A program made the position numbers and the translations under genes. From NCBI GenBank assembly GCA_016186395.1, contig JACPLU010000003.1, positions 11,883 through 75,882 on the forward strand: DNA of 64,000 nt. Direction: 5' to 3'. Shown piece by piece: positions 377 through 26,766 of the stretch. The stretch's first letter is position 1. Every line of letters starts with the position of its first letter. The stretch is from Parcubacteria group bacterium (lineage in GTDB: Bacteria; Patescibacteriota; Minisyncoccia; 2-02-FULL-40-12). The notes under the pieces were generated by a model. That model saw nothing but the letters and a program-made list of their open reading frames with translations. It was not told the origin of the DNA and did no database searches.

Positions 377-1000
377 TGTCTCCTCCTTGAAGTAAAGAAC
401 GCGTTTGTTGAAATAGCAGTATATACTATGGTAGCATATACTTTTGTTTTTGTCAATTGAATCTAAAAATGTAGGCGGGATTTGTCTCATACTTAAGACC
501 CGAAGCCGGGTGAGCTACCCATGGCCAGGATGAAGTTCCGCGAAAGCGGAATGGAGGTCCGAACCCACGCATGGCGCAATATGCGGGGATGAGCTGTGGG
601 TCGGAGTGAAAAGCTTATCGAACCCGGTAATAGCTGGTTCTCTCCGAAATGCCTTTAGGGGCAGCGTCGGATTATGTTAAGTTGGGGGTAGAGCACTGAT
701 TGGATTTCCGTGCCCTTATGGGTAGGTTTTCCAGCCAAACTCCGAATACCAATTTAATTACTCCGGCAGTGAGACTACGGGGGCGAAGCTCCGTGGTCGC
801 GACGGGAACAGCCGTGATCTCAAGTTAAGGTCCCTAAATTAAGGTTAAGTGTGAAAGGTAGTGAAGACGCTCAAACAACCAGGAGGTTTGCTTAGAAGCA
901 GCCATCCTTTAAAGAGTGCGTAACAGCTCACTGGTCGAGCTTTTTTGCGCCTAAGATGTAACGGGGCTAAAACCTTATACCGAAACTGAGGGTTATCTGT

Positions 1001-1108
1001 GGCTCATCGATGCGTCTAAGGTCAAATGACTAAGGACTAAAGCTGAAAGGTTTAATTTTTGGCTTTAGACTTTAGACTCTAGACTTTAGTCGTGACGATG
1101 AGTCACGG
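1001..1108. repeat. 108-bp hairpin element, copy 1, inserted at the 23S helix-45 IVS hotspot
   Basis: Differs from 2087-2194 by a single nucleotide. Imperfect hairpin: gactaaggactaaagc ... gctttagactttagactctagactttagtc. Flanked by ggctcatcgatg / cgatgagtcacgg. Confidence 0.8.
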
Positions 1109-1666
1109 GTAGCGGTAGGAGAGCGCTTCATGTGCAGTGAAGCCTACGACGTGAGTCGGGGTGGAGCGCATGGAGGTGAGAATGTTGGCATGAGTAACCA
1201 CAATCCGCCTGAAAACGGCGGACGCCGAAAGCCTAAGGATTCCTCCGCGATGGCAATCATCGGAGGGTTAGGCGGCCCTAAGCATAAGTCAGGTTTTGGC
1301 CTGGCGAATGCGATGGACAGCCGGTTAATATTCCGGCCCTTCCTTATATTTTTAAGGAGCCCGGAGCTTAGTAGACTTGGCATATTATTGGATTTATGTT
1401 TGTGATATAAGAATGCGTCTTTGGAAAATCCGGGATGCTGTCTTTAATGACGAATTTAAATATTATGAAAACCCTGGTAACAGGGAATCAAGTTGAGCAA
1501 GCTTCCTAGAAAAACTTCTAAAATTATGTATAAGGAGTCCGTACCGCAATCCGACACAGGTAGGCAGCCAGGGAAACTGGTAAGGCGAACGGGTGAATGG
1601 TGGCTAAGGAACTCGGCAAAACAGCGGGCGTAAGTTCGCAATATGCCCTGCCAGCCGTAGATTTTA

Positions 1667-1953
1667 GTTTTTAATTTAGTTATAAAGTATCCATGTACTG
1701 TATTTATCTAATTCAGCATTCTGTAACAAAACAAATTTATATTGGTCTAACCAATGATTTGAAACGTCGGTTGTATGAACATAATGCTTCACAACAGAAA
1801 GCGACCAAAAGAAAAATTGGAGAATGGGTTTTAGTTTATGCAGAGGCATACAGAAATAAGACGGACGCTCAAATTAGAGAAAGAAAGTTGAAGCAACACG
1901 GAAGTAATAAACGTTGGTTAAAGGACAGAATTAAGTACAGTTTATTTGAAGAT
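1667..1953. other. Second helix-tip insertion in 23S (E. coli helix-63 region), bounded by a 16-bp perfect inverted repeat
   Basis: ccagccgtagatttta (1651-1666) pairs with taaaatctacggctgg (1954-1969). Conserved 23S sequence resumes at ggggactgtttatcaaaaacacag. Confidence 0.7.
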
Positions 1954-1956
1954 TAA
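1693..1956 (+). CDS. GIY-YIG domain protein (87 aa) encoded inside the 23S insertion
   Basis: The YIGLTNDLKRRLYEHN motif is a GIY-YIG core. The ORF is in the same sense as the rRNA. Confidence 0.7.
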   Translation: MYCIYLIQHSVTKQIYIGLTNDLKRRLYEHNASQQKATKRKIGEWVLVYAEAYRNKTDAQIRERKLKQHGSNKRWLKDRIKYSLFED

Positions 1957-2086
1957 AATCTACGGCTGGCCGCAGCGAATGACCTCTGGGGACTGTTTAT
2001 CAAAAACACAGCTCTCTGCTAACTCGAAAGAGGATGTATAGGGGGCGACGCTTGTCCAATGCTGGAACGTTAACGGTGATGGTCGT

Positions 2087-2194
2087 GGCTCATCGATGCG
2101 TCTAAGGTAAAATGACTAAGGACTAAAGCTGAAAGGTTTAATTTTTGGCTTTAGACTTTAGACTCTAGACTTTAGTCGTGACGATGAGTCACGG
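2087..2194. repeat. 108-bp hairpin element, copy 2, inserted in the 23S domain IV helix-68 region
   Basis: Nearly identical to 1001-1108. It interrupts the 23S between ggtgatggtcgtg and ctggagcccgaagcgccagtcaatgacggc. Confidence 0.8.
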
Positions 2195-2241
2195 CTGGAG
2201 CCCGAAGCGCCAGTCAATGACGGCAATAACCATAATTGTCC

Positions 2242-2466
2242 AAAGGTGAATCGCATTGCCTTTGTAAAATCCGACTATATCGGTGAACATCTCACTAAGA
2301 CGTGAGACAATACCGAGGCAATCCGTGAAAACGGAGAGTCCGTAGAGACTAAACGTCGGATCCTGAGCAAGCCGAAAGGCTAGTTGAAGGAAAGATATAG
2401 TCCGAACTGCATGGCGACATGCAGAAATGAGCAGAAATGTCTCGTTCCGCCGAGTCTGATTCGGCG
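2242..2466 (+). mobile_element. Small ORF-less group I intron in 23S, near E. coli position 1917
   Basis: Inserted after ccataattgtcc (E. coli ACGGUCC). Carries P7-like core strands gagactaaacgtcgg and aagatatagtccgaac, like the Tetrahymena CAGACTAAATGTCGG / AAGATATAGTCGGAC. Ends in G. Confidence 0.6.
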
Positions 2467-2529
2467 AAGTAACAATGTTGAGCGCAATTCCTTTCCGGGT
2501 AAGTTACGGAACTTGCCCCATGAAGAAGT

Positions 2530-3200
2530 GATTCTTTATGCAAAGTCGGCTTATAACGGTGGAGCCTGTTTCATGATAAAATGGAATAGAGAATACCGTG
2601 GGAAGTTGTCTTGACCTAACTCAAGATTAACCCCGTAACGACTGAGGCGAAAGCCACAATGGCGTTTTTTGAAACGTCATTATACGCCGACCCCTTAGGA
2701 TATTATGAGGAATATCGAAGAATATATTTCTGGATATGTTGATGGCGAAGGATGTTTTACTGTAACTTTTAACAAAAGGGATAAAGCAAAAATTGGTTGG
2801 GAATTAAGACCAAGTTTTTCAGTCAGTCAGAATGAAGAAAGACGACAGGTGCTAGATATTATACAGAAATATTTTGGATGTGGTTTTATTCGAAGAGATT
2901 ATTCAGACAGAACAGTAAAATTTGAAATTCGAGACCACATACAACTTAGAGATAGGGTTATTCCTCATTTTGAGAGATTTCCATTGCTCTCAAATAAACA
3001 AAAAGATTTTGAATTGTTTAGAGAAGTATGCAAAATTATTGATCATGGAGGTCATCTTACAAAAAGTGGATTTATTAAGATTGTAAATTTTGCTTATCGA
3101 ATGAATGGATCTGGTAAGCGTAAAAGAACTTCCCAAGAAATAATTCGAAATCTTAAATGATACTTAAGGTGATGATATAGTCTATAGTCTTAATTTAAAG
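2530..3200 (+). mobile_element. Group I intron in 23S domain IV, around E. coli 1931-1951, carrying a LAGLIDADG ORF; boundaries approximate
   Basis: Non-rRNA block between ccccatgaag and ggaaccactggaggactgtctcagcc. Shares taaccccgtaacgactga and ataccgtgggaagt with the intron at 4694-5437, and has P7-like ggtgatgatatagtc. Confidence 0.6.
2705..3160 (+). CDS. LAGLIDADG homing endonuclease (151 aa)
   Basis: YISGYVDGEGCF is a LAGLIDADG motif. Size is typical of a single-motif enzyme, and it sits inside a group I intron of the 23S. Confidence 0.8.
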   Translation: MRNIEEYISGYVDGEGCFTVTFNKRDKAKIGWELRPSFSVSQNEERRQVLDIIQKYFGCGFIRRDYSDRTVKFEIRDHIQLRDRVIPHFERFPLLSNKQKDFELFREVCKIIDHGGHLTKSGFIKIVNFAYRMNGSGKRKRTSQEIIRNLK

Positions 3201-3473
3201 ATTAAGAAGTTCCGGAGCGCATGAAAAGCGGAACCACTGGAGGACTGTCTCAGCCACTGGCCCGGTGAAAATGCAATGTCAGTAAAGATGCTGACTACCC
3301 GCACCAAGACGGAAAGACCCCGGAAGCTTTACTGTCTCTTGGTATTGGTCTATGAGTTTGGATGCGTAGTGTAGTGGGTAGGATTTGAAGTCCACCTTTT
3401 GGGGTGGATGGATCCAACAATGAAACACCCATCTTTCAGATTTATAGCTCTAACTGGTGACACCCTAGAAGGA

Positions 3474-3780
3474 AAATTTATAAGGAGGAGATTCTATAAT
3501 GCTATTTGAAGGTTCTCCTAGCCCAACATTTGAAGAAGAAGAAAAGTTTGGATTTAATCTATCAACAAAAATTTATGTTCATATTAATTCACCTCTTTTA
3601 GGTGAAAATGGTAATAAGATAGAAAAGAAATTTGGTGTATTAATCCATCTTTTAACTGGAAAACACGCGAGATTCAAATTAGCTGATCAATTTCGAGTAT
3701 ATGGAAGTGCGGCTAATGTGATAAAATTTTTGAGTAGTTATTTTCAATAAATTTCCTTTTGACAAGCTAGTCTTGTCTCT
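3474..3780. other. Third helix-tip insertion in 23S (domain V helix-78/79 region) carrying a sense-strand gene cassette
   Basis: Bounded by ccctagaa (3464-3471) and ttctaggg (3781-3788). Conserved sequence resumes at caggacagtgcctggtggacagtttgaatggggcg. Confidence 0.6.
3499..3750 (+). CDS. 83-aa protein of unknown function inside the 23S insertion
   Basis: RBS aaggaggag 9 nt upstream of ATG. Hairpin gacaagctagtcttgtc immediately after the stop. Confidence 0.45.
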   Translation: MLFEGSPSPTFEEEEKFGFNLSTKIYVHINSPLLGENGNKIEKKFGVLIHLLTGKHARFKLADQFRVYGSAANVIKFLSSYFQ

Positions 3781-4148
3781 TTCTAGGGTTTCATCAGGAC
3801 AGTGCCTGGTGGACAGTTTGAATGGGGCGTTTCCCTCCTAAAGAGTAACGGAGGGGTCCATAAGGTACCCTAGTCCCGGATGGAAATCGGGACGATAGTG
3901 TAAAAGCATAAGGGTGCTTGACTGCAAGGCAAACGTGCCGCGCAGGTGCGAAAGCAGGGTTTAGTGAACCGACCGTGGCTGGTAGGAGCGCGGAAGATTA
4001 TCGGATAAAAGCTACTCCGGGGATAACAGGCTAGTACCGCCCGAGCGTCCATAGCGACGGCGGTGTTCGGCACCTCGATGTCGGCTCGGCTTATCCTGGC
4101 GGTGAAGAAGCTGCCAAGGGTTGGGCTGTTCGCCCATTAAAAAGCTAC

Positions 4149-4621
4149 GCGAGCTGGGTTCAGACCGTTAAGAATCTGAATCATAAATCATGAAACTTGA
4201 AACATCTTGTTTCGGTTTGATTTGGTTTTTTAACAGTCTGAATCCGAGGATATTCAAAAGACATCATTTAACGGCGGCACTATATAGGAATATATAGTGT
4301 GAAGTTGACCATATCGGTGAAATCCCATTGGGATAACACCTAGGGAAGTTTGTAAACTTTATTGAAGTTCTTTTTTGGGAGGTGTAGCTCAAGAGTATTG
4401 TATGATGAAAGGCGAAAGTCGGGGACTCATACAGTAGCGAGAGCACTGGACTCTGGATCCAGAGGTTGCAGGTAAAAATCCTATCACCACCCACCAATTT
4501 TTGAGTAATCAATATTTGGCACTTCAATAAAGTTTACAAATCCCGTAGAGACTATACGTCAGCCACCCTAATTGAGCTTAGCTCAGCGGGTGAAGATATA
4601 GTCCAGTGCATACAGCAATGT
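4149..4621 (+). mobile_element. ORF-less group I intron in 23S at the I-CreI/I-CeuI-type site (around E. coli 2593)
   Basis: Exon gggttcagaccgt | intron | cgtgagacaggttggtcc matches E. coli GGGUUUAGAACGU|CGUGAGACAGUUCGGUCC. Core strands agactatacgtc and gaagatatagtcc are present and the intron ends in G. The only ORF in it (4264-4527, minus strand) looks spurious. Confidence 0.7.
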
Positions 4622-4693: not shown

Positions 4694-5437
4694 AGAATTT
4701 GCTACTTTAAGGAGTAATCCTTAATGACAATCCGACTTATAACGGTGGAACCTTATTGCAACTTGATTTGTTGATAACCAGAATTATCCTAATCCAATAA
4801 TTCTGGTACAATTTACTTGAGGACAAGATAGTAATAAGACAATACCGTGGGAAGTCATTCTAAAAACGATTTAGCATATATTTCCGGTTTTCTTGATGGA
4901 GACGGAAGTTTAATGTTGCAGATCAAAAAGTATAAGTACAATAAGTCAGGAAAAAGATTCATGGTAACTATTTGTTTCTATCAGGATTCAAGACACGACA
5001 AACCTCTTTATTGGATCCGTAAGATATTCGGGATAGGGTATATATCTAAAAGAAATGACGGTATTACTGAATTAAGAATAAATGGATATTCTAGAGTAAG
5101 AATAATTTTAGAAAAACTATTGCCGTTTATTAAGTTTAAGAAGAAGCAAGCAAGAATTCTTTATAAAGCGAGTAAATTACTCGAAAAAGAAAAAAAACTT
5201 AAAAAGACTTCCATGATTCGACTCGTAGATTACATAGTAAGAATCCAAGAGGAAAATTATGTGACAAGAAAAAAGAGATCGAAAGATGATTTATTAAAAT
5301 TTTTAGGATTGACCCCGTAACGACTCATCTTTAAAATAGATGGATGGCTGTTTTTAAACAGTCATAATATGTCGGCTCCCATCTTTGTCGATGGGATGAA
5401 GATATAGTCTACTCTTCTGGTGACAGAAGAAAATGTG
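4694..5437 (+). mobile_element. Group I intron in 23S inserted within the sarcin-ricin loop, carrying a LAGLIDADG ORF
   Basis: Joining exons cctagt + acgagaggattgg recreates CUAGUACGAGAGGA. The 5' exon ends in U and the intron ends in G. Core strands taatatgtcgg and gaagatatagtct are present. Confidence 0.65.
4847..5320 (+). CDS. LAGLIDADG homing endonuclease (157 aa)
   Basis: LAYISGFLDGDGSL is a LAGLIDADG motif; the ORF is intron-encoded. Confidence 0.8.
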   Translation: MGSHSKNDLAYISGFLDGDGSLMLQIKKYKYNKSGKRFMVTICFYQDSRHDKPLYWIRKIFGIGYISKRNDGITELRINGYSRVRIILEKLLPFIKFKKKQARILYKASKLLEKEKKLKKTSMIRLVDYIVRIQEENYVTRKKRSKDDLLKFLGLTP

Positions 5438-5703: not shown

Positions 5704-5834
5704 AAAGACTAATTTGGCGATAATGCCGAGTGTGTCCCACCTCTGGTTTGTTTACAAGCCTTAATCCATTCCGAACAGAGAAGTGAAATCACTCAGGGCC
5801 GATGGTAGTTCGAGCTTAGCTCGAGCCAGAGTAG
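5704..5834 (+). rRNA. rrf: 5S rRNA, with a roughly 17-nt expansion in the helix III / loop B region
   Basis: Carries the 5S blocks gtcccacct, ccattccgaacagagaagtgaaa and ggccgatggtag, and ends in agagtaggtcgtcgccag. It lies about 55 bp after the 23S end. Confidence 0.7.
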
Positions 5835-6014
5835 GTCGTCGCCAGATTAGTCTTTTTAATTTGCTCTGTCACCAGGTCCAGCATAGCCACGCACCTTTTG
5901 TAAAACAAAAGGTGCGAGAGTACAAAAAATTAGTGCTGGGCTCCCTGTCCTGTCCGGCAGGCGGGGATGCGGGGCTTCTTGCAATAAAACAGATATTCGC
6001 GGTACGATTGAAGC

Positions 6015-6791: not shown

Positions 6792-7919
6792 ATGAAACAT
6801 GAGTCGTGCATCAAAAGGTTTAAAGATGTTTCATGTTTCATGTTTCATGATTTGAGAAAATTAGATTGGTGGCTTTTGACCCCTGTACTCGCTTTATTTT
6901 TAGCGAGTCTTTTAAACTTATACGGCATCGGAGGTTTTGATTCTTTCTTTATAAAACAACTTATTTTTGTATTAGTCGGTCTTGTTCTGTTATTATTTTT
7001 TGTTAGTATTGATTTTAGAATCTTTAGGGAATCAAGTATATTACCATCATTACTTTATGTTGCGTCTCTAATATTTTTATTCGGCACTCTATACTCTTCA
7101 GAAGTTCGCGGTATTAAAGCCTGGTTTTTTATAGGATCTTTTGGGTTTGAACCATCTGAAATTACAAAGTTAGCTTTAATATTATTTCTAGCTAAGTTTT
7201 TTTCGAGTAACGGCGGGCAAAGAACTAACCAACCCTTCTCATTGGGGATATCTTTGATATATACCCTAATTCCTATTGGCTTCATACTTTTACAACCAGA
7301 TTTTGGTTCGGCAGCAGTTTTAGGCGCTATATGGCTAAGTGCGTTAATGAATTTTAAAATCAAAAAGACACATATGCTATTTTCGACAGGTGTTTTGGTG
7401 TTGCTTGGTATTGTGATTTGGATTTTTATGCTCGCGCCGTATCAAAAAGCTAGATTTACTGCTTTTTTAGATCCGTTGGAAGATCCGCGCGGTTCCGGTT
7501 TTCAGAATCTTCAAGCTCAAATTTCAGTTGGTTCCGGAAACTGGTTGGGTTACGGTGTACAAAATGCTACTCAAGTTAAACTTGGTTATTTGTCAGAGCC
7601 AAGAAATGATTTTGCATTTGCGGCCTTTGCCCAACAGTTTGGTTTTTTAGGTACTTCTTTGGTCGTAATTTTGTATGGTTTATTTTTATATAGACTGTCC
7701 TCCATAGGGATATTTACAAAAGACCGATTTGTTCATATATTTGTTTTTGGATTTTTAATTTTTATTTCTACTCATTTAATTATTAATATTGGAATGAATA
7801 TCGGCGTTTTGCCTGTCACAGGAATTCCACTATCCTTTTTTAGTTATGGTGGGAGTCATCTATTAACTTTGATGTCTGGGCTTGGCATTGTTCAAAGTAT
7901 AAAGGTTCATACTTCTTAA
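6792..7919 (+). CDS. SEDS-family peptidoglycan glycosyltransferase (FtsW/RodA)
   Basis: Ten-TM SEDS architecture, with ...DFAFAAFAQQFGFLGTSLV... matching the FtsW/RodA conserved block. An alternative in-frame start at 6840 (MFHDLRKLDWW) lies inside a heptamer repeat array. Confidence 0.85.
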   Translation: MKHESCIKRFKDVSCFMFHDLRKLDWWLLTPVLALFLASLLNLYGIGGFDSFFIKQLIFVLVGLVLLLFFVSIDFRIFRESSILPSLLYVASLIFLFGTLYSSEVRGIKAWFFIGSFGFEPSEITKLALILFLAKFFSSNGGQRTNQPFSLGISLIYTLIPIGFILLQPDFGSAAVLGAIWLSALMNFKIKKTHMLFSTGVLVLLGIVIWIFMLAPYQKARFTAFLDPLEDPRGSGFQNLQAQISVGSGNWLGYGVQNATQVKLGYLSEPRNDFAFAAFAQQFGFLGTSLVVILYGLFLYRLSSIGIFTKDRFVHIFVFGFLIFISTHLIINIGMNIGVLPVTGIPLSFFSYGGSHLLTLMSGLGIVQSIKVHTS

Positions 7920-8368: not shown

Positions 8369-11300
8369 TTGAGTCGTTGCAACTTTTTGCAAAAGAAAAA
8401 TCTCTCAAAATTTTTACCGGAAGTTGCCGAAATACCAAATCTTATAGAGATTCAGTTAGAATCTTTTAATTGGTTGACAAAGGTTGGGCTTCGCGAGCTT
8501 TTTACCGAGGTTTCTCCTATTGAAGATTGGACAGGGGAAGAATATGAATTACATTTTGTTGATTATAGAATTGAAGAACCGAAGTTAGATCAACAAACTT
8601 CTAAAGAAAAAAATATGACTTTTGAGTCTCCGTTGAGGGTAAAGCTTAAATTAATAGACAAGAAAATAGGAGCATCAAAAGAACAGGAAATTTATCTGAG
8701 TGATTTTCCTTTAATGACTGAAAGGGGAACCTTTATTATTAACGGAATTGAACGTGTTGTAATTTCTCAATTAGTTAGGAGTCCAGGCGCATTCTTTGTT
8801 CTTACTAAGGAAAACCGTTTTAGAAAACTCTTTGGCGCAAAAATTATACCTTCACGTGGAGCTTGGTTGGAATTTGAAACCGATGACTCCGGTGTGATTA
8901 GCGTAAGAATTGACAGAAAGAGAAAGGTTGCCGCAACAGCATTGTTGCGGGCTTTTGGTTATGGCACCGACGCAAAGATTAAAGAATTATTTGGATCAGA
9001 TGAGAAAATAATGCAATATGTTGCGCCTACCTTAGTGCAGGATCCATCTTCTTCGGAAGAAGAAGGTTTGGTGGAGATTTACAAACGCATTAGACCGGGT
9101 GACAGAGCTACGGTCGATAACGCCAGACAGATGGTTCATAATATGTTCTTTAATTTCAGTCGATATGATTTATCAAACGTTGGAAGACATAGGATGAATC
9201 AAAGATTTAATGGAAGTTTTCCTCTTGATGAAAAAAATAGAGTTTTAAAGCCGGAAGATATAGTAGAGGTTATGAAAGAGATTATAAGATTGAACAATGA
9301 TCCTCAAGCCGAACAAGATAATATTGATCATTTATCAAACAGAAGAGTAAAAACTATTGGTGAACAACTTCAAGGTAAATTAAGGATCGCTCTTGCAAGA
9401 ATTGAACGTATTGTGAAAGACAGAATGAGTACATTTGAGGTTGAAACAATCGTGCCAGCCCAGCTGATTAATTCTCGTCCTTTTAATGCCGCACTGAAAG
9501 AATTTTATGCTTCTGGTCAGCTCTCACAATTTATGGATCAGACTAATCCCTTATCTGAACTTGAGCATAAACGCAGGCTGTCAGCCTTGGGTCCCGGGGG
9601 ATTGTCTAGAGAAAGAGCGGGATTTGATGTTCGTGATGTCCACCCGAGTCACTACGGACGTATTTGTCCGATTGAGACTCCGGAAGGGCCAAACATCGGG
9701 TTAGTCGGTCACTTAGCAAGCTTTGCAAAGATTTCTCCCCTCGGATTTATCACTACTCCTTATAGAAAAGTTGAAAAAGGAAAGGTTTTGGATGACATAA
9801 TTTATATGGATGCGGCTGAAGAAGAGAAATTTGTAATTGCACAGGCCGGTATTAATATTGATTCTAATGATAAAATTTTAGATAAAATGGTTGCCGCGAG
9901 GGTTAATGGGGAACCAAGTTTTGTTCATGTAAGCGAGGTGGAGTTTATTGACGTGTCTCCCAAGCAGCCATTTTCTGTTGCTACTTCTCTAATTCCATTT
10001 TTAGAGCATGATGACGCAAATCGCGCTTTGATGGGATCTAATATGCAACGTCAGGCGGTTCCACTTGTCCGAACTCAAGCGCCATTAGTTGGAACCGGAA
10101 TGGAAAACAGGGTAGCTAAAGATTCCGGCATGGTTGTTGTCGCAGAAGACAATGGAGTTGTTAATTCAGTTGACGGTTCAAAGGTGGTCATCAAAACTGA
10201 TGCCGGTAAAACTAAGACTTATAATTTGTTAAAGTTTGCAAAATCAAACGCTTATACATCTATTAACCAAAAGCCTTTAATTGAGCCTGGTGAAAGAGTT
10301 AAGAAGGGTCAAGTTATTGCAGATGGTCCATCTACGGATAATGGCGAGTTGGCTTTAGGCCAAAATCTTTTGGTGGCCTTTCTTTCTTTTGAGGGTGCCA
10401 ACTTTGAAGATGCCATAGTTATATCCGAACGTTTAGTAAAAGAAGATACATTTTCGTCTATTCATATAGAGGACTATACAATAGATGTAAGAGAGACAAA
10501 ATTAGGTCCGGAAGTAATAACTTGTGATATCCCAAATGTAAGCGAAGAGAGGTTAAAGGATTTGGACAGCCAAGGAATTGTTAGAGTTGGGGCGGAAGTG
10601 AGATCACAAGATATTTTAGTCGGAAAGATTTCTCCAAAAGGTGAAGGTGATTTAACCCCAGAAGAAAGATTACTTCGGGCTATTTTTGGTGAGAAATCAA
10701 GAGATGTGAAAGATACCTCTTTGCGTCTTCCTCATGGTAAACAAGGAAGGGTTGTGGGTGTTAAGATTTTTTCGCGCGATGAGGGGTATAAATTGCCAGC
10801 AGGTGTTATGCAGACAATACAAGTTTCAATAGCTCAACGTAGAAAAGTTCAAGTTGGTGATAAACTTGCTGGAAGACACGGTAATAAAGGGGTAATATCG
10901 ACCATTTTGCCAGAAGAGGATATGCCGTTTTTACCAGATGGGCGTCCTGTTGATATTGTTTTAAGTCCTTTGGGTATTATCTCTCGTATGAATATAGGTC
11001 AGATTCTTGAAACTCATTTGGGATGGGCAGCAGACAAATTAAATTATCGAGCGGTAGTTCCTTCAATGGGCGGACCGACAGAGGCCGCTATCAAAGAGGA
11101 ACTTAAGAAAGCGGGTTTACCAGAAAATGGAAAGATTCAGCTTTATAATGGGAAAACAGGTACGCCGTTTGATCAGGAGACTACTGTTGGCATAATTTAT
11201 TTTATGAAATTGGGACATTTAGTTGAAGATAAGATTCATATGCGAGCCATAGGGCCATACTCATTGATTACACAGCAGCCATTAGGAGGAAAGGCCCAAT

Positions 11301-18568: not shown

Positions 18569-19651
18569 TTATTCGTTAAGCCAGAACCAAAATTGATTTT
18601 TAAGTTTCTGAGACAATTTATATGAATCAGCGTGGCTCAAAACACCGAGATATGATTGCAAGGATTGTTCGAGGGTTTCATTTGTTATAACTCCCGATTT
18701 ATACTCCGCAATTTTTTTATTTAATTTTTTAAATATCCGTTGTCTTGTTTTAGCTCTAAGAATTCGATAATGAGGGAAAACTATATACCCGAGAAAATCT
18801 ATTCCCCGTTGAAATTTATTGATAGAAATCTTTTTTGGATGAATTTCCAGTTGTAGTCTTTGCCTTAGGAAAGAACTTATTTTTGGGATTAATCCTGATA
18901 GGTAATCACGACTGTCAGAAACTATGGTAAAGTCATCGGTATAACGGCAATAATATTTCACTTTTAAATCATGTTTAATAAACTGATCAGATTCGTTCAT
19001 ATAGATGTTTGCGAAAAGCTGTGAGGTTAAATTGCCTATTGGTAGACCCTTTCTGGCGAATAAATTTGAGCAAGAAGACAGAAAACTTCTGATAACCTTT
19101 TCAAGTAGCCAGATGGTATCTGTGTCTCGAATCCGTTTCTTCAGTATAGAAATCAAAATTTTATGATCTACCGCATCAAAAAACTTTTTAACATCACATT
19201 TAAGAATGAAGCAAGGTTTCGTTCCATTGCCGGATACTTTTCTGGTCATCTGTTCAAGGACGCGGATTCCTTTGTGGCTTCCGAATCCAACCCGACAAGA
19301 AAAAGAATTTTGAATGAATGTTTGTTCAAAAATCGGATTGGCTACCGAAAAGATGGCATGATGCAAAATTCTATCCCGAACCGTGGCTTTGTGGATATGC
19401 CTTTGTTTTGGGTCTCGGATGTAGAAACCAGTATATTGTCCGTGTTCATAAGTCTTATTCTGAAGTTCTCGACGAAGTTTAAAAATATTTTCTTCAAGAC
19501 AAAATTCAAATCTTTGAACATCAACTTTATTCCTCTTGTCGCTTTTGAAAGTATCCCACGCTGAAAATAGGTTTTCCAGCGAGATTATTTTATTAAACAA
19601 GTTTTTATAGGTTTTCATAATAAAATTAAATGAACGAATTCGATACCCCAA
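18569..19651 (-). CDS. Diversity-generating retroelement reverse transcriptase
   Basis: RT motifs are present: KCDVKKFFDAVDH (motif A), LPIGNLTSQLFANIYMN, where the [I/L]GxxxSQ form is typical of DGR RTs rather than the group II intron QGxxxSP, and YCRYTDDF (YxDD). The length of about 350 aa fits. The true start is probably MKTYKN at 19618. Confidence 0.85.
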   Translation of the reverse strand: MGYRIRSFNFIMKTYKNLFNKIISLENLFSAWDTFKSDKRNKVDVQRFEFCLEENIFKLRRELQNKTYEHGQYTGFYIRDPKQRHIHKATVRDRILHHAIFSVANPIFEQTFIQNSFSCRVGFGSHKGIRVLEQMTRKVSGNGTKPCFILKCDVKKFFDAVDHKILISILKKRIRDTDTIWLLEKVIRSFLSSCSNLFARKGLPIGNLTSQLFANIYMNESDQFIKHDLKVKYYCRYTDDFTIVSDSRDYLSGLIPKISSFLRQRLQLEIHPKKISINKFQRGIDFLGYIVFPHYRILRAKTRQRIFKKLNKKIAEYKSGVITNETLEQSLQSYLGVLSHADSYKLSQKLKNQFWFWLNE

Positions 19652-19977
19652 TATTTATAAAATCCTACGATTTATACAAGCTATTTTATAGTTTCCGTAC
19701 CCTGGTTCCCAAAAATGACCGCTACACAATCTGGCAAAGGTGCGAAAATTTAATGCTGGATATAATCGATGGAATTCTATATGCCAGCCAAATTTCAAAA
19801 ATTGAGAAACTCCCGATTCTTGAAAAAACAAGCATGAAGTTAAGTCTCCTGCGTGTTTTTGTTCGGCTTATGAAAGATACCAAAGCGATAGATAATAAGA
19901 AATACGTATCACTCGAAACCATTATCGACGAAATTGGCCGTCAGCTTGGAGGCTGGATAAAATCAACTAAAGGATAA
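19630..19977 (+). CDS. avd: DGR accessory variability determinant (Avd-like four-helix-bundle protein)
   Basis: 115 aa. The C-terminus IDEIGRQLGGWIKSTKG resembles Bordetella phage Avd IAEVGRILGSWIARVNRKG, and the N-terminal region VPKNDRYTIWQRCEN resembles IPRKHGVAREMFLKC. Transcribed divergently from the RT. Confidence 0.65.
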   Translation: MNEFDTPIFIKSYDLYKLFYSFRTLVPKNDRYTIWQRCENLMLDIIDGILYASQISKIEKLPILEKTSMKLSLLRVFVRLMKDTKAIDNKKYVSLETIIDEIGRQLGGWIKSTKG

Positions 19978-20023
19978 CAGAATACCCGCCAACTGGCGGG
20001 TATTCTTAATGAGGAGCGACTTC

Positions 20024-20148
20024 GAAAGGAACCCAGACGCGGAGCCATAGTTGTCGTTCGGGTTGCTTACGTCGTTCGTGTTGAACTTGACCTTGTCGTC
20101 GTTGAAGTTGAAGTACGGCGCGCTGCTGAACCTGCCATCAGCGTCTGG
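20024..20148 (-). repeat. DGR template repeat (TR)
   Basis: 125 bp homologous to 20620-20744. All 15 mismatches are T on plus (A on the coding/minus strand) in this copy. The translated frame is Asn-rich (NFNDDKVKFNTNDVSNPNDNY), typical of AAC-rich TRs. The 70-aa ORF 19963-20175 is therefore not a gene. Confidence 0.85.
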
Positions 20149-20613
20149 AAATTGCTTTTGCCCATCTATAGTCACCGGATATCGAGGCTTGCCACCTTAA
20201 CGGTCTATATCCTCTCAATCCTGAATTTTATTCGGGAGCATCTCGCAAAAGAATCTCCGCTGGGCGGAAGCAAGCAGTAGTCTCCTCAATTTGGCACTCT
20301 CGGAGAATCCGTGAACGCTCCGACTCTGGCCGTTTGATCTCTTTTTTGAAGAGAGAGTTCGGTGACGGCAATCCGAGAGCGATTCTAGTCGGGCTAAAGC
20401 GCCGACTAAGAAACTTCGCCCAGATAAACTGCCGTTCATTAACCTAAGCTCACAGGAAGTATACAAATAATCCAATTAAAAGTGAATATATAAAAAGAAA
20501 AAGAGGGCCACCCACGATGGAACTGTGGATAACCCTCTCAAAAATTTCGCCGAACTCAAGGATCAAGAAACAACGAATCAAAAGATCCAAGTGTTCGAGC
20601 GATCAAGGCCCTA

Positions 20614-21471
20614 CTACTGCGAAAGGAACCCAGACGCGGAGCCAAAGCTGTCGTCCGGGTCGCTCACGCCGTACGCGTTGAACTTGACCCTGACGTCGTC
20701 GAAGAGGAAGTACGGCGCGCTGCCGAACCTGCCATCAGCGCCTGGACTGTACTCATCGCCTGGGCAGTCGATGTGCAACTGTTCCCATTGAATGAGCCGT
20801 TCCGGATGAGACAGAAGCATGCAGTCGACGATGAACGAGCCGAGCCCGAACTCGTGAGGAGCATAGACCACGCGCATCCTTCGCACGGACCGACCCCGAT
20901 GGGTCAGGCCGAACTGGGCTGGGATCAGTAGAAAGTCGCCCTTCTGCTTTTCGCCGATCATCTGGAGCGCGACGGCTGTCCGTTCGGAGAGCCGCAGGTA
21001 TTTCGGGCCGAGCGCGCCTTTGCGGTAGTTGTGGAAGGTGCGGGTCTTTCCGATCAGGTCGAGAACCTTCTCGACAGCCTCGTTGTACGAGGACGCAACC
21101 TTCTCCCACCGCGGAACGGCGAACCAGCCTTCCGCGCCAGCGGGCAGAGCCGGAAGCTCCTTGGAGCAGGCCAGCACCGAACTGGTGTTGAGACCGTTGA
21201 AGTGCTTGGAGAGCTCCACGAGCTGTTCGCAGACCGGCTTCACGGCGTACCCTTGCGGATAGCCGTAGTTGGACTTCACCTCTTCGTTGGCGAAGAACGG
21301 ACTCGCCGTGACGAGAGGTGCCGAGGTCACTTCCTTCTCCTCGACGATGGACTGCAGGTTCCTGGCGACGAAACTCGGCTCGAGCGTCCCTTCCATGAGG
21401 CGGCGCTGGACTTCCCACATGCGGCGGGAAATCGTTCCGAGAGTGTCGTCTGCGACGATGTGAGTCGTCAT
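20614..21471 (-). CDS. DGR target (variable) protein, 285 aa, with a C-terminal VR-encoded ligand-binding region
   Basis: Good RBS aaggagg upstream of the start. The C-terminal 40 aa (...PGADGRFGSAPYFLFDDVRVKFNAYGVSDPDDSFGSASGFLSQ) is paralogous to the TR translation. About 58% GC, unlike the surrounding sequence. No signal peptide was detected. Confidence 0.8.
   Translation of the reverse strand: MTTHIVADDTLGTISRRMWEVQRRLMEGTLEPSFVARNLQSIVEEKEVTSAPLVTASPFFANEEVKSNYGYPQGYAVKPVCEQLVELSKHFNGLNTSSVLACSKELPALPAGAEGWFAVPRWEKVASSYNEAVEKVLDLIGKTRTFHNYRKGALGPKYLRLSERTAVALQMIGEKQKGDFLLIPAQFGLTHRGRSVRRMRVVYAPHEFGLGSFIVDCMLLSHPERLIQWEQLHIDCPGDEYSPGADGRFGSAPYFLFDDVRVKFNAYGVSDPDDSFGSASGFLSQ
20620..20744 (-). 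repeat. DGR variable repeat (VR) at the 3' end of the target gene
   Basis: Matches the TR except at template-adenine positions. It ends 4 nt from the target stop codon. The GC-rich 3' end ctccgcgtctgggttcctttc is conserved between TR and VR (IMH-like). Confidence 0.85.
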
Positions 21472-21707
21472 GATGACAACCTCCTTTTGATTTAACTTGC
21501 GAATTGTCTTGGCTCTCTTTGTCCCGCTGGGAGACTTTAGTGAGCCATATCCTGTTCCTCAGGATGCGGTCCCATCTCGGTTGAGACGAGCATGCTGGAA
21601 GTCTATGTTTTAGATGTCCAAAATGCTCATCTCAAGCCAAAACCTTATTGTAAGAACTGTATAATAATTATATACTATAAAAATATTAAAGTCAATGGTT
21701 AAATATT

Positions 21708-24421: not shown

Positions 24422-24915
24422 AGTCCAGTATTAGAACCCAGTAGTAGAGTAAAACTCACTACCGGACTTTGCTTCGACAGTATAAGAAGCGAACGAAGTG
24501 AGCGTAGTCCAGCACTAAACAAAGTTTTAGTGCTGGATTTCAGCTGGGCATGTCGTCTCCAGATAATAGCAAATTAGATGTGGATTCGTCAACTTACTGT
24601 GTGCCTTTCCACATCTGCCTTTCCACATCGGGTGTGGAAAGGCGTTGGGATAGGGAGTAATCGTTAATGAGGTACTTGCGTCGAGATTTGATGTGATTTT
24701 CGACATCGCAAGTCGAAGAGGTTTTGTTTGCGGTGTCTTACGACATTCAATGTCGTAAGAGTAAGAAATTTATGAGTTTTGACGATTCAAGACTGTGAAT
24801 TGGATCTCTAGCGGGGGTTGATCCCTAACGGGATCAACCCCCGCCCTTAAGTTTAAGAGTGGGGTTGATAATAGATTTTGGAATTCTTGAGTTTTGGTAT
24901 ATTATCACAAATACT

Positions 24916-26766
24916 ATGTGTGGCATTTTTGGTTTTGTTAGTAAAAAGCCTGTTACTGGTATAGGTAATATGCTCCAAGCTTTAAAAAAGCTTGAATATA
25001 GGGGTTATGACTCTACTGGTATCGCTGTTGTAACCCAGAAGGGAATTTATAGTCAAAAAAAAGCCGGCCGAATAAGCAAGTTGGAACCATTTTTAGATAA
25101 AAAAGTTTTAGGCTCCGTTTTTATTGGCCACACTCGTTGGGCAACTCATGGAAAGCCTTCCGATAAAAATGCTCATCCACATTTTGGATGCGATAATAAA
25201 ATTCAAATAGTACACAATGGAATAATAGAAAACTATAAATCTTTGAAGCATGAATTAGAAGGTCGTGGTCATCGTTTTAAATCCGATACCGATAGTGAAG
25301 TTTTTGCTCATTTAGTAGAAGAGTTTCTGGGACGTAAAAACGGATCTGAAATAAGATATTTCGAAGAAGCAGTAAGATTATCTTTAAAAAGAATTAAGGG
25401 GGCCTATGCCTTTGCCGTTATTCATCAAAATTATCCTAAAGTTATAATTGTAGCAAAAAATTCAAGTCCATTATTAATTGGATTAAGCGATCAGGCTAAA
25501 TACATTGCTTCAGACCCCATAGCCTTACTTCGTCATACTCGTAAGGTCATTTATCTTAATGATCAAGAGTTGGCTATTGTTACCCCAGATCAATTAAAGA
25601 TTTCAACTCTCCAGAATAAAGAGATATTAAGAAAATATCAAGAAGTTAGTTGGTCTGAGGATGCAGTCAGGAAAACTGGATTTACTCATTTCATGGAAAA
25701 AGAAATTTTTGAGGAGCCGGAGGCTGTAGAAAATGCTATTAGAGGCCGGTTGATCGTTTCTCAGGGTTTGGCAAAGTTGGGAGGATTAGAATCTGTACGC
25801 CAAAAATTAGAAAGTGTTAAAAGGTTGATTATAACTGCTTGCGGTACAGCTTTTTTTTCTGGTTTAGTTGGAGAGTACATGTTGGAAGAGTTTGCGGGTC
25901 TGCCAGTAGAGGTTGAGAGCGGTTCGGAGTTGCGCTATAAAAGATCTCCGTTTGATGATAAAAGTGCTTTGTTGGCTGTAAGCCAATCAGGAGAGACTGC
26001 CGATACTCTCGGCTCTATTAAGGAAATAAAAAAAACAGGTCTTTTAACGCTGGGGTTGGTAAATACAGTGGGTTCTTCTATTGCTAGGGAGACAAATGCC
26101 GGAGTTTATAATCATGCAGGACCAGAAATTAGCGTTGCCTCTACCAAAGTTTTTATTTCTCAATTAGCAGTTTTTGCTTTACTGACTTTATTTTTAGGCC
26201 GTCAAAGATCTATGAGTAAAAATATGGGCAAACTTATAGCCTCTGAGCTGACTTTGATACCAAGAAAGTTGAGAACTATATTAGAAAGTTCTGTCTATAT
26301 TAAACGTGTGGCTCGAAAATACTTTAAATATAATAACTTTTTATTTTTAGGTAGAAAATTTAATTATCCTATTGCACTTGAGGGAGCCTTGAAATTAAAA
26401 GAGGTATCCTACATTCATGCTGAAGGATATGGAGCGGGGGATATGAAACATGGACCGTTGGCTTTGATAGATGAGAATTTTCCATCTATAGTAATTGCTC
26501 CAAAAGACAGTGTATACGATAAAGTAGTTAGTAACATGGAGGAACTAAAAGCTCGGAAGGGTAAAATAATCATCATAACTACTAGCGGAAATAAAGGACT
26601 TGATAAATTAGCGGATGAGGTTTTGTATATTCCTAAAACGATTGAAATGCTTACTCCGCTTTTGACAGTGATGCCGTTACATCTCTTGGCATATTACATG
26701 GGAGTTTTTAGAGGTCACGATGTAGATAAGCCACGTAATCTTGCTAAATCAGTAACGGTGGAATAA
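24916..26766 (+). CDS. glmS: Glutamine--fructose-6-phosphate aminotransferase
   Basis: MCGIFGF N-terminal nucleophile followed by two SIS domains. The start is set at the Cys-2 ATG (24916), not the upstream ORF start. Confidence 0.95.
   Translation: MCGIFGFVSKKPVTGIGNMLQALKKLEYRGYDSTGIAVVTQKGIYSQKKAGRISKLEPFLDKKVLGSVFIGHTRWATHGKPSDKNAHPHFGCDNKIQIVHNGIIENYKSLKHELEGRGHRFKSDTDSEVFAHLVEEFLGRKNGSEIRYFEEAVRLSLKRIKGAYAFAVIHQNYPKVIIVAKNSSPLLIGLSDQAKYIASDPIALLRHTRKVIYLNDQELAIVTPDQLKISTLQNKEILRKYQEVSWSEDAVRKTGFTHFMEKEIFEEPEAVENAIRGRLIVSQGLAKLGGLESVRQKLESVKRLIITACGTAFFSGLVGEYMLEEFAGLPVEVESGSELRYKRSPFDDKSALLAVSQSGETADTLGSIKEIKKTGLLTLGLVNTVGSSIARETNAGVYNHAGPEISVASTKVFISQLAVFALLTLFLGRQRSMSKNMGKLIASELTLIPRKLRTILESSVYIKRVARKYFKYNNFLFLGRKFNYPIALEGALKLKEVSYIHAEGYGAGDMKHGPLALIDENFPSIVIAPKDSVYDKVVSNMEELKARKGKIIIITTSGNKGLDKLADEVLYIPKTIEMLTPLLTVMPLHLLAYYMGVFRGHDVDKPRNLAKSVTVE

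Follow-up and report, generated by a model that had tools for sequence, protein, structure and literature searches.

We examined a 64-kb stretch of a Parcubacteria genome (Candidate Phyla Radiation, CPR), the whole of which is referred to here as the window, and focused on a short GC-rich island that coincides with part of a diversity-generating retroelement (DGR) lying between ftsK and recA. The protein-coding genes of this cassette, including its reverse transcriptase (RT), and its template and variable repeats (TR and VR) are as follows, with GC3 denoting GC content at third codon positions.

20614-21471, minus strand: DGR target (variable-protein) gene, 285 aa; 61.3% GC, GC3 0.80; the core of the island
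20616-20746, minus strand: VR, comprising the last 43 target codons and the stop; 63.4% GC; a 131-nt repeat of the TR
20019-20149, minus strand: TR; 54.2% GC; the last 24 shared nt lack variable adenines, resembling an initiation-of-mutagenic-homing site
19630-19977, plus strand: avd accessory gene, 115 aa; 36.5% GC; between TR and RT and antisense to both
18569-19618, minus strand: DGR RT, 349 aa from the ATG at 19618; 34.5% GC; head to head with avd, the start codons 11 nt apart

The element is a genuine DGR. Its 131-nt TR and VR are 88% identical, all 16 mismatches (16/16) place a TR adenine opposite a VR non-adenine on the minus strand, and the VR (20616-20746) occupies the 3' end of a coding target (open reading frame, ORF, 20614-21471). 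The RT is of the DGR type: it matches the RVT_1 profile (E = 4e-23), its residues 2-343 match PDB 8ub7_A, 'Reverse transcriptase' (E = 3.4e-44; the best solved structure, matched over its full length), which we take to be the Bordetella phage DGR RT, and group II intron and retron RTs give far lower scores. The accessory protein Avd is also present, scoring above the cut-off in Pfam (bAvd PF22296, 56 bits, cut-off 40) and just under it in NCBIfam (DivGenRetAVD, 72.3 bits, cut-off 80). The target had no family match in Pfam or NCBIfam scans, and a fold search returned only weak matches resembling formylglycine-generating enzymes and C-type lectins (FGE/CLec), the fold class of DGR variable proteins such as Treponema denticola TvpA (PDB 2y3c). 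A deposited protein of Parcubacteria group bacterium, annotated as hypothetical, is identical to it. The search for target homologues proposed in the first-pass annotation of this DNA yielded 650 sequences, essentially all from CPR lineages, and in those compared the C-terminal (VR) columns are hypervariable. In the window the cassette is flanked by ftsK and recA, which are adjacent in the Wildermuthbacteria contig L047; compared with that genome, the 3.2-kb cassette is therefore an insertion.

Positions 20020-21480 contain 55.6% GC, compared with 37.2% in the remaining window sequence and 37.6% in the whole 64-kb window, and constitute the most GC-rich 1461-bp segment of the 64 kb (sliding mean 0.376, sd 0.038). 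The first-pass annotation had described an island of ~58% GC in a ~37% GC genome; the contrast holds, but the value given for the island itself was too high. A comparison of GC and codon usage with the rest of the window, which it had also proposed, singled out the target alone: the ORF has GC1, GC2 and GC3 values of 0.61, 0.43 and 0.80 (first, second and third codon positions), whereas the 36 other window ORFs of at least 150 aa have a GC3 of 0.287 ± 0.040 and a maximum of 0.436, in RNase J. Relative to its host, the target is thus as atypical as a gene of a horizontal-transfer island. RT (34.5%) and avd (36.5%) were correctly described as AT-rich and host-like beside a compositionally alien target, with the VR at 63.4% and the TR at 54.2%. 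The long Arg-rich ORFs reported in alternate frames are likewise present (20753-21418, minus strand, 221 aa; 21031-21495, plus strand, 154 aa) and are explained by the target GC3 of 80%, at which open alternate frames are expected. The description of the TR-VR spacer as strongly GC-rich was overstated, as the spacer has 45.5% GC overall and is uneven along its length, consisting of a leader (20150-20450, 48.8%), a putative promoter zone (20451-20495, 22%) and a 3' untranslated region (UTR) with a candidate terminator (20496-20613, 45.8%). The TR is GC-rich because it copies the 3' end (VR) of the target gene, and the TR-proximal spacer is moderately GC-rich (~49%) because it encodes a conserved structured RNA leader. 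The island is therefore the sum of the target ORF, the TR and the structured leader.

We compared this arrangement with homologous loci, 79 from species-representative genomes and 40 from metagenomes (L-numbers, with WIN denoting the window's own cassette). Across the 71 loci with usable flanks, target GC was 0.592 ± 0.043, compared with 0.444 ± 0.066 in the flanks (flank range 0.33-0.59), and exceeded flank GC in 71/71. In the 66 loci with at least three background ORFs, target GC3 was 0.76 ± 0.09 in hosts with GC3 between 0.25 and 0.78 (slope 0.19, r = 0.27) and in 63 of them was higher than in any neighbouring ORF of 200 aa or more, while RT and avd GC3 tracked host values (slopes of 0.58 for RT and 0.53 for avd, with r = 0.65 and 0.61). 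Profiles of 87 loci show a mean GC excess of +0.10 to +0.22 that begins at the target start codon and ends at the stop codon, in the same manner whether the RT was downstream (n = 26), upstream (n = 9) or undetected (n = 52). Hosts with at least 50% GC account for 18 of 86, and there the target matches the genome. Target-ORF composition is a property of the gene family that does not depend on the host and stops at the ORF boundaries. Horizontal acquisition by this genome, as the first-pass annotation had suggested, would be a one-off event and cannot account for a trait common to ~100 homologues in hosts of 33-59% GC; the alternative named alongside it, an unusual compositional constraint on the target, fits best. 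A wider GC-rich zone was seen at L077:7026-10729, where ORFs 7026-7538 and 8426-9364 upstream of the target have GC3 values of 0.59-0.72 versus 0.33; this zone looks like a true multi-gene foreign island.

As controls, we retrieved 80 DGR loci from viral contigs via their RT and found TR/VR pairs in 63. Control VRs exhibited a GC3 excess of +0.22 and control TRs were GC-rich too, so that the GC-rich VR/TR part of the window island is ordinary for DGRs. The non-VR part of control targets differed by +0.025 from the RT (median +0.008) and by +0.043 from background, and each 40-codon bin upstream of the VR stayed within +0.02 to +0.06. Controls being GC-rich only in VR and TR, a whole-ORF excess as a general DGR property was ruled out. 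The clearest exceptions among them were L121, which belongs to the window's own family, and L125 (153-aa target, GC3 0.80 vs 0.27), with milder ones in L134 (0.80 vs 0.54) and L129. A second CPR target family, comprising L006:16944-17654 (minus strand) and L113:850-1575 (plus strand), has GC3 values of 0.73-0.76 vs 0.47 and 0.31, and the large targets of related RTs (L122-L124) have host-like composition. The L006/L113 family is of the ..NWTLC[AS]GSR..GVPR..WR.. type and L125:6612-7073 (plus strand) of the 153-aa type; GC-richness is confined to the ORF in both.

The codon choices of the target depart from those of the host in several respects. Leucine CTN and TTR codons occur at 26:1 in the target versus 665:912 in the host, arginine CGN and AGR codons in the target at 14:4, and target NNC use is 0.86. 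Use of NNG codons is 0.68 in the target, 0.26 in the host and 0.12 in RNase J, the native gene richest in GC3, which prefers C-ending codons and shuns G-ending ones; SSB, RecA and RpoB/C have GC3 values of 0.24-0.30. Given these different native preferences, translational codon optimisation was ruled out. A selective loss of adenine over the whole ORF through the DGR RT was rejected, because at four-fold sites T falls (from 0.41 in the host to 0.125 in the target) as well as A (from 0.29 to 0.07). Dual coding or an RNA-structure constraint on the ORF was ruled out by substitution rates: between WIN and L007, the target and the RT show synonymous divergence (dS) of 0.91 and 0.92, respectively, with a ratio of nonsynonymous to synonymous divergence (dN/dS) of ~0.19. 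Synonymous sites of the target are not frozen and evolve at a normal synonymous rate.

To determine the direction of these substitutions, we used outgroups to polarise synonymous changes at third positions in 47 sister pairs. In the target, per-site rates were 0.158 from A/T to G/C (W>S) and 0.075 in the opposite direction (S>W), implying an equilibrium GC3 of 0.68, while the corresponding RT rates of 0.21 and 0.30 imply 0.41. Where both hosts were below 43% GC, the target rates were 0.147 and 0.082, for an equilibrium GC3 of 0.64, and the ratio of S>W to W>S counts at the tips was 2.5 in low-GC hosts and 2.9 in high-GC hosts. RT, avd and target have diverged to similar degrees among WIN, L007 and L083, the cassettes co-diverging over ~0.6-0.9 synonymous substitutions per site with the trait kept. 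A rough two-state model, calibrated on S/W turnover in the RT and assuming co-divergence of RT and target, predicts that a neutral target in these cassettes would now have a GC3 of at most 0.58-0.67, even if its ancestor had 100% GC3. The observed values are 0.77-0.79 at shared synonymous sites and 0.75-0.79 over the whole non-VR ORF, beside RTs of 0.30-0.36. As they lie above the neutral maximum, decay at the RT's rate cannot produce the pattern, and neutral amelioration at that rate is rejected where testable. With the excess found in 71/71 loci, target equilibria of 0.64-0.68 compared with 0.41 for the RT, and co-diverged cassettes that keep the contrast, the target does not behave as a decaying, genome-specific relic that ameliorates like its neighbours.

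The relationships among target alleles point to mobility of the gene. Its closest homologues (79-87% identity) lie in non-syntenic contexts, and host-matched dS comparisons were for this reason restricted to cassette-internal genes. Between WIN and L080, target dN is 0.044 while RT and avd share only ~60% protein identity and the RT unit is inverted, and close target alleles occur at contrasting host GC (L011/L032, 0.49 and 0.33; L018/L033, 0.43 and 0.59). Close alleles (the window against L080, L081, L083 and others) contain 135-180-nt blocks at 100% nucleotide identity beside blocks at 65-85%, a mosaic that indicates frequent intragenic recombination. The target gene is thus subject to lateral exchange and recombination among CPR bacteria. 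In the target tree, hosts of 50% GC or more occupy scattered, not basal, positions, and the window's own clade (more than 25 sequences, synonymous differences to ~0.5) occupies hosts almost wholly of 38-47% GC. Mobility hallmarks were not found at the cassette borders, where ORF lists and tRNA scans within 17-25 kb revealed no integrase or tRNA, direct repeats not having been specifically searched; the edges of the GC excess are the start and stop codons, although the cassette as a whole does interrupt the ftsK-recA adjacency relative to L047. Two loci from the same Hainich groundwater metagenome, L101 and L102, carry near-identical targets (4% synonymous third-position difference) on contigs that are otherwise 44% and 63% GC.

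The organisation of related cassettes bears on which parts of the island belong together. RT-bearing loci share a constant order of promoter, leader (~230-300 nt), TR, G+C hairpin, antisense avd and RT; in all of them the start codons of RT and avd are head to head, 2-15 nt apart. In some loci, as in the window, the RT unit follows the target on its strand, and in others it precedes the target in inverted orientation; the TR adjoins the avd 3' end regardless of target orientation. Nucleotide homology on the RT side reaches approximately window position 20380 in local alignments, and the leader consensus aligns on to ~20450. Since the TR always adjoins avd within this fixed unit, it is part of the RT/avd/leader unit and travels with it, not with the target. 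The first-pass annotation had proposed a target/TR module separable from RT/avd: the target is indeed separable, as seen from its occurrence in either orientation, the RT-less loci and the discordant similarities, but the TR sits in the RT/avd unit. The RT was absent from the available sequence at 52 of the 87 profiled target loci, for some of which the contig is short. Leader-RNA remnants adjoin targets with no detectable TR, avd or RT at L001:9559-9782, L077:10859-11043, L025:10847-10955 and L056:259-308, and look like decayed cassettes in which the target has outlived the RT unit. As no more than 2-15 nt separate the start codons of RT and avd, each promoter must lie inside the coding sequence of the opposite gene, or else RT expression depends on transcription that continues from the TR through antisense avd.

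The leader and the regulatory-like sites of the window cassette are the following.

20150-20450, minus strand: conserved structured RNA leader 5' of the TR; 48.8% GC (alignments A2 and A4, RNAalifold, nhmmer)
20458-20486, minus strand: promoter-like site TTCACT-17-TATACT, putatively for the leader-TR RNA (consensus scan)
20498-20520, minus strand: terminator-like hairpin (20520-20508) and T-run 3' of the target ORF, of putative function
19979-20006, no strand assigned: G+C-rich hairpin of 12 perfect base pairs, located between the end of the TR and the stop codon of avd (sequence)
21667-21695, minus strand: near-consensus promoter-like site TTGACT-17-TATAAT (11/12) upstream of the target, of putative function (consensus scan)

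RNAalifold folded the leader into 54 pairs in 8 helices, with compensatory changes in 43 of the pairs. Paired cells made up 96.2% of the alignment compared with 39-52% in slid-partner controls, double-sided changes numbered 355 compared with 43-77, and none of the shuffled alignments (0/500) matched the observed values. The leader was detected by nhmmer in 41 of 44 RT-bearing loci; it contains the invariant motifs TACTGCTTG and AATAAAATTCAGGA, and the 3' arm of its helix 5 abuts the TR start. A 49-nt insertion at 20376-20424, located in the loop of helix 1 and forming its own small hairpin (GTCGG...CCGAC), is private to the window and absent from the closest cassette, L083. The -10 element of the leader promoter-like site is kept in relatives (TATACT/TATAAT aligned in A4), the hairpin at 20498-20520 would keep the target mRNA and the leader-TR transcript apart, and that at 19979-20006 looks like a bidirectional terminator. 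On the other side of the target gene, which is preceded by a strong Shine-Dalgarno sequence, the promoter-like site would give a 5'UTR of ~190 nt (21472-21660, 45% GC); a 53-nt stretch of it (21582-21634) has 83% identity to L031:5566-5615. No Rfam family matches the leader or the UTRs, the putative target 5'UTR at 21472-21660 having no match above threshold. From the comparison, the functional unit of this CPR DGR clade consists of promoter, ~300-nt structured leader, TR, hairpin, antisense avd and RT, and the covariation-supported leader structure could guide mechanistic work on CPR DGRs.

We propose, with a probability of roughly 0.55, that the island is made up of three elements belonging to a single DGR cassette, situated between ftsK and recA in a Parcubacteria (CPR) genome, in which a fixation bias favouring G/C acts on a laterally exchanged and recombining target. 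The target is ~61% GC because its whole family holds ~59% GC (GC3 ~0.76) in hosts of 33-59% GC, the excess falling mainly at synonymous sites and involving generic G/C-rich codons rather than host-preferred ones. As the maintaining force we infer a gene-specific fixation bias toward G/C, which might stem either from selection acting on base composition or from biased gene conversion associated with recombination. The TR is GC-rich as the template copy of the gene's 3' end and the spacer next to it through the structured leader of the TR transcript, while RT and avd evolve toward host composition. More tentatively, and at somewhat less than even odds, small CPR DGR variable-protein genes at large (the window's family and apparently the L006/L113 and L125 families) may be under an active gene-specific process that favours G/C and holds the ORF near 60% GC in any host, linked either to exchange and recombination, through biased gene conversion, or to a DGR-related need on target DNA or RNA beyond the VR.

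Several observations weigh against a maintained bias. GC1, GC2 and GC3 values of 0.61, 0.43 and 0.80 are those of an ordinary gene of a 60% GC genome, so that an active bias and a foreign reservoir are indistinguishable by composition alone. Changes at the tips are net S>W (557 vs 228) and current GC3 (0.84) exceeds the implied equilibrium of 0.68, such that decay of target GC3 may be under way, or the counts may be biased by parsimony or tip polymorphism. Some clades in the lowest-GC hosts have target GC3 values of only 0.50-0.65, and target GC3 rises weakly with host GC3 (positive slope), host GC being estimated from flanks of at most 10 kb on contigs of metagenome-assembled genomes only. 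Mosaic recombination could have refreshed the target, undoing the assumption of the decay test. Finally, the GC3 shift of +0.4 to +0.5 exceeds, to our knowledge, the effects of biased gene conversion reported for bacteria.

The main rival explanation, which we consider possible though unlikely, is a source-sink scheme in which the family is native to an undersampled reservoir of ~60% GC (GC-rich CPR lineages or a mobile element) and enters low-GC CPR genomes so frequently that most of the copies seen are too young to have ameliorated, with no special force at work. The codon-position profile typical of a 60% GC genome would suit such an origin, as would the clear lateral exchange (no synteny, close alleles across host GC, target/RT discordance), but the island edges fall exactly at the ORF, with donor flank never carried. 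Potential sources exist in the 18 of 86 hosts with at least 50% GC, whose genomes the target matches, yet these are scattered through the tree and not basal, and the window's clade lies almost entirely in hosts of 38-47% GC. Incomplete amelioration is suggested by the net S>W excess at the tips and by the partly ameliorated clades of some low-GC hosts; however, tip substitution ratios are independent of host GC, the W>S per-site rate exceeds S>W even where both sister hosts are below 43% GC, and co-diverged cassettes keep a GC3 near 0.78 beside RTs at 0.30-0.36. A single recent acquisition of a target/TR module by this genome from a GC-rich donor is quite improbable and already largely refuted. 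Recent DGR transfer is customarily deduced from atypical GC (PMC5758913), and the cassette does separate ftsK from recA, neighbours in L047, but the same contrast recurs in 71/71 flanked homologous loci, the TR is physically part of the AT-rich RT/avd/leader unit, and the entire cassette is common to WIN, L007 and L083, in which RT and target have diverged comparably and the contrast is kept.

Ordinary selection at the coding or RNA level, whether through translational optimisation, an overlapping alternate-frame gene or an mRNA-structure constraint, is very improbable. It would agree with the ORF-bounded excess and with the strong promoter-like site and Shine-Dalgarno sequence before the gene, yet the target is heavy in the G-ending codons that RNase J avoids, SSB, RecA and RpoB/C remain at a GC3 of 0.24-0.30, and composition is constant across hosts with differing codon preferences. 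The long open alternate frames that might speak for a second gene are expected at 80% GC3, and a target dS of 0.91 beside 0.92 for the RT excludes dual coding or a tight RNA-structure constraint. We give next to no weight to an assembly chimera or binning artefact joining a GC-rich fragment to an AT-rich contig, as might be suspected from an abrupt compositional change in a metagenome-assembled contig. The VR of the GC-rich gene has its adenine-bearing template, the TR, on the AT-rich side, and dozens of independent assemblies show the same junctions, among them a closed 888-kb chromosome (L073, OY970382.1). The first-pass annotation had reasoned that many similar GC-rich genes would point to a chimera; the target is the sole such gene in the window, and that test fails. 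Together, the TR/VR match, the recurring junctions and the single affected gene rule a chimeric assembly out.

Elsewhere in the window, the 23S rRNA match at 393-4234 spans 3842 nt compared with a 2925-nt model and so contains ~900 nt of insertions, with ORF 2705-3160 inside; the 5S rRNA (5713-5847) lies 1.5 kb downstream of the 23S, with ORF 4847-5320 between them. Insertions in rRNA genes are known from CPR bacteria. ARAGORN called a tRNA-Phe (anticodon AAA) at 24951-25025, inside ORF 24859-26766 (glmS-like by eye), which is probably a false positive given that Rfam did not confirm it.

Published surveys have read atypical GC as a sign of recent DGR transfer (PMC5758913). Here the same signal is a stable, family-wide trait of one gene, while the RT and avd of the cassette behave normally, and DGR surveys and island finders that equate atypical GC with recent transfer would misdate such genes. 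A full-text literature search, which did not extend to the main CPR DGR paper (Paul et al. 2017), returned no report of host-independent GC of DGR targets or of a compositional split within a cassette, and the compositional behaviour of the target family thus appears to be unreported. If the proposed G/C-favouring bias is correct, it would amount to a compositional homeostasis of DGR targets for which we found no description in the literature searched. It would also make this an unusually clean family for telling apart selection on base composition and biased gene conversion in bacteria, because the same gene occurs in hosts of 33-59% GC together with an internal neutral control, the adjacent RT.

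The window element shares its main components with the prototype DGR of Bordetella phage BPP-1 (mtd-avd-TR-brt): an RT homologous over its full length to 8ub7_A (E = 3e-44), presumably the Bordetella phage RT, an Avd protein, a 131-nt TR/VR pair differing only at TR adenines, a VR at the target 3' end, and an adenine-free, G+C-rich 3' end common to TR and VR. It differs in having avd antisense between TR and RT, with RT/avd start codons 11 nt apart, and in the position of its conserved structured RNA, which is 5' of the TR; the functional spacer of BPP-1 lies 3' of the TR. In addition, its 285-aa target has no detectable sequence similarity to known families, and the whole target ORF, not the VR alone, is compositionally displaced from the host. 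Among cellular DGRs, clade 2 of Roux et al. 2021 (PMC8144416) is restricted to CPR/Patescibacteria and found in aquatic and groundwater samples, and the present homologues come from the same lineages; neither that study nor PMC5758913 mentions host-independent target GC, the 5' leader RNA or the fixed antisense avd layout. The locus also resembles GC-atypical genomic islands in its sharp compositional break, its insertion between genes adjacent in another CPR genome and its evidence of lateral exchange. Unlike such islands, however, the atypical segment is exactly one ORF that recurs for the same family in every host, and its composition does not keep pace with the amelioration of the RT beside it. 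In architecture, the cassette represents a variant of an already known type of element.

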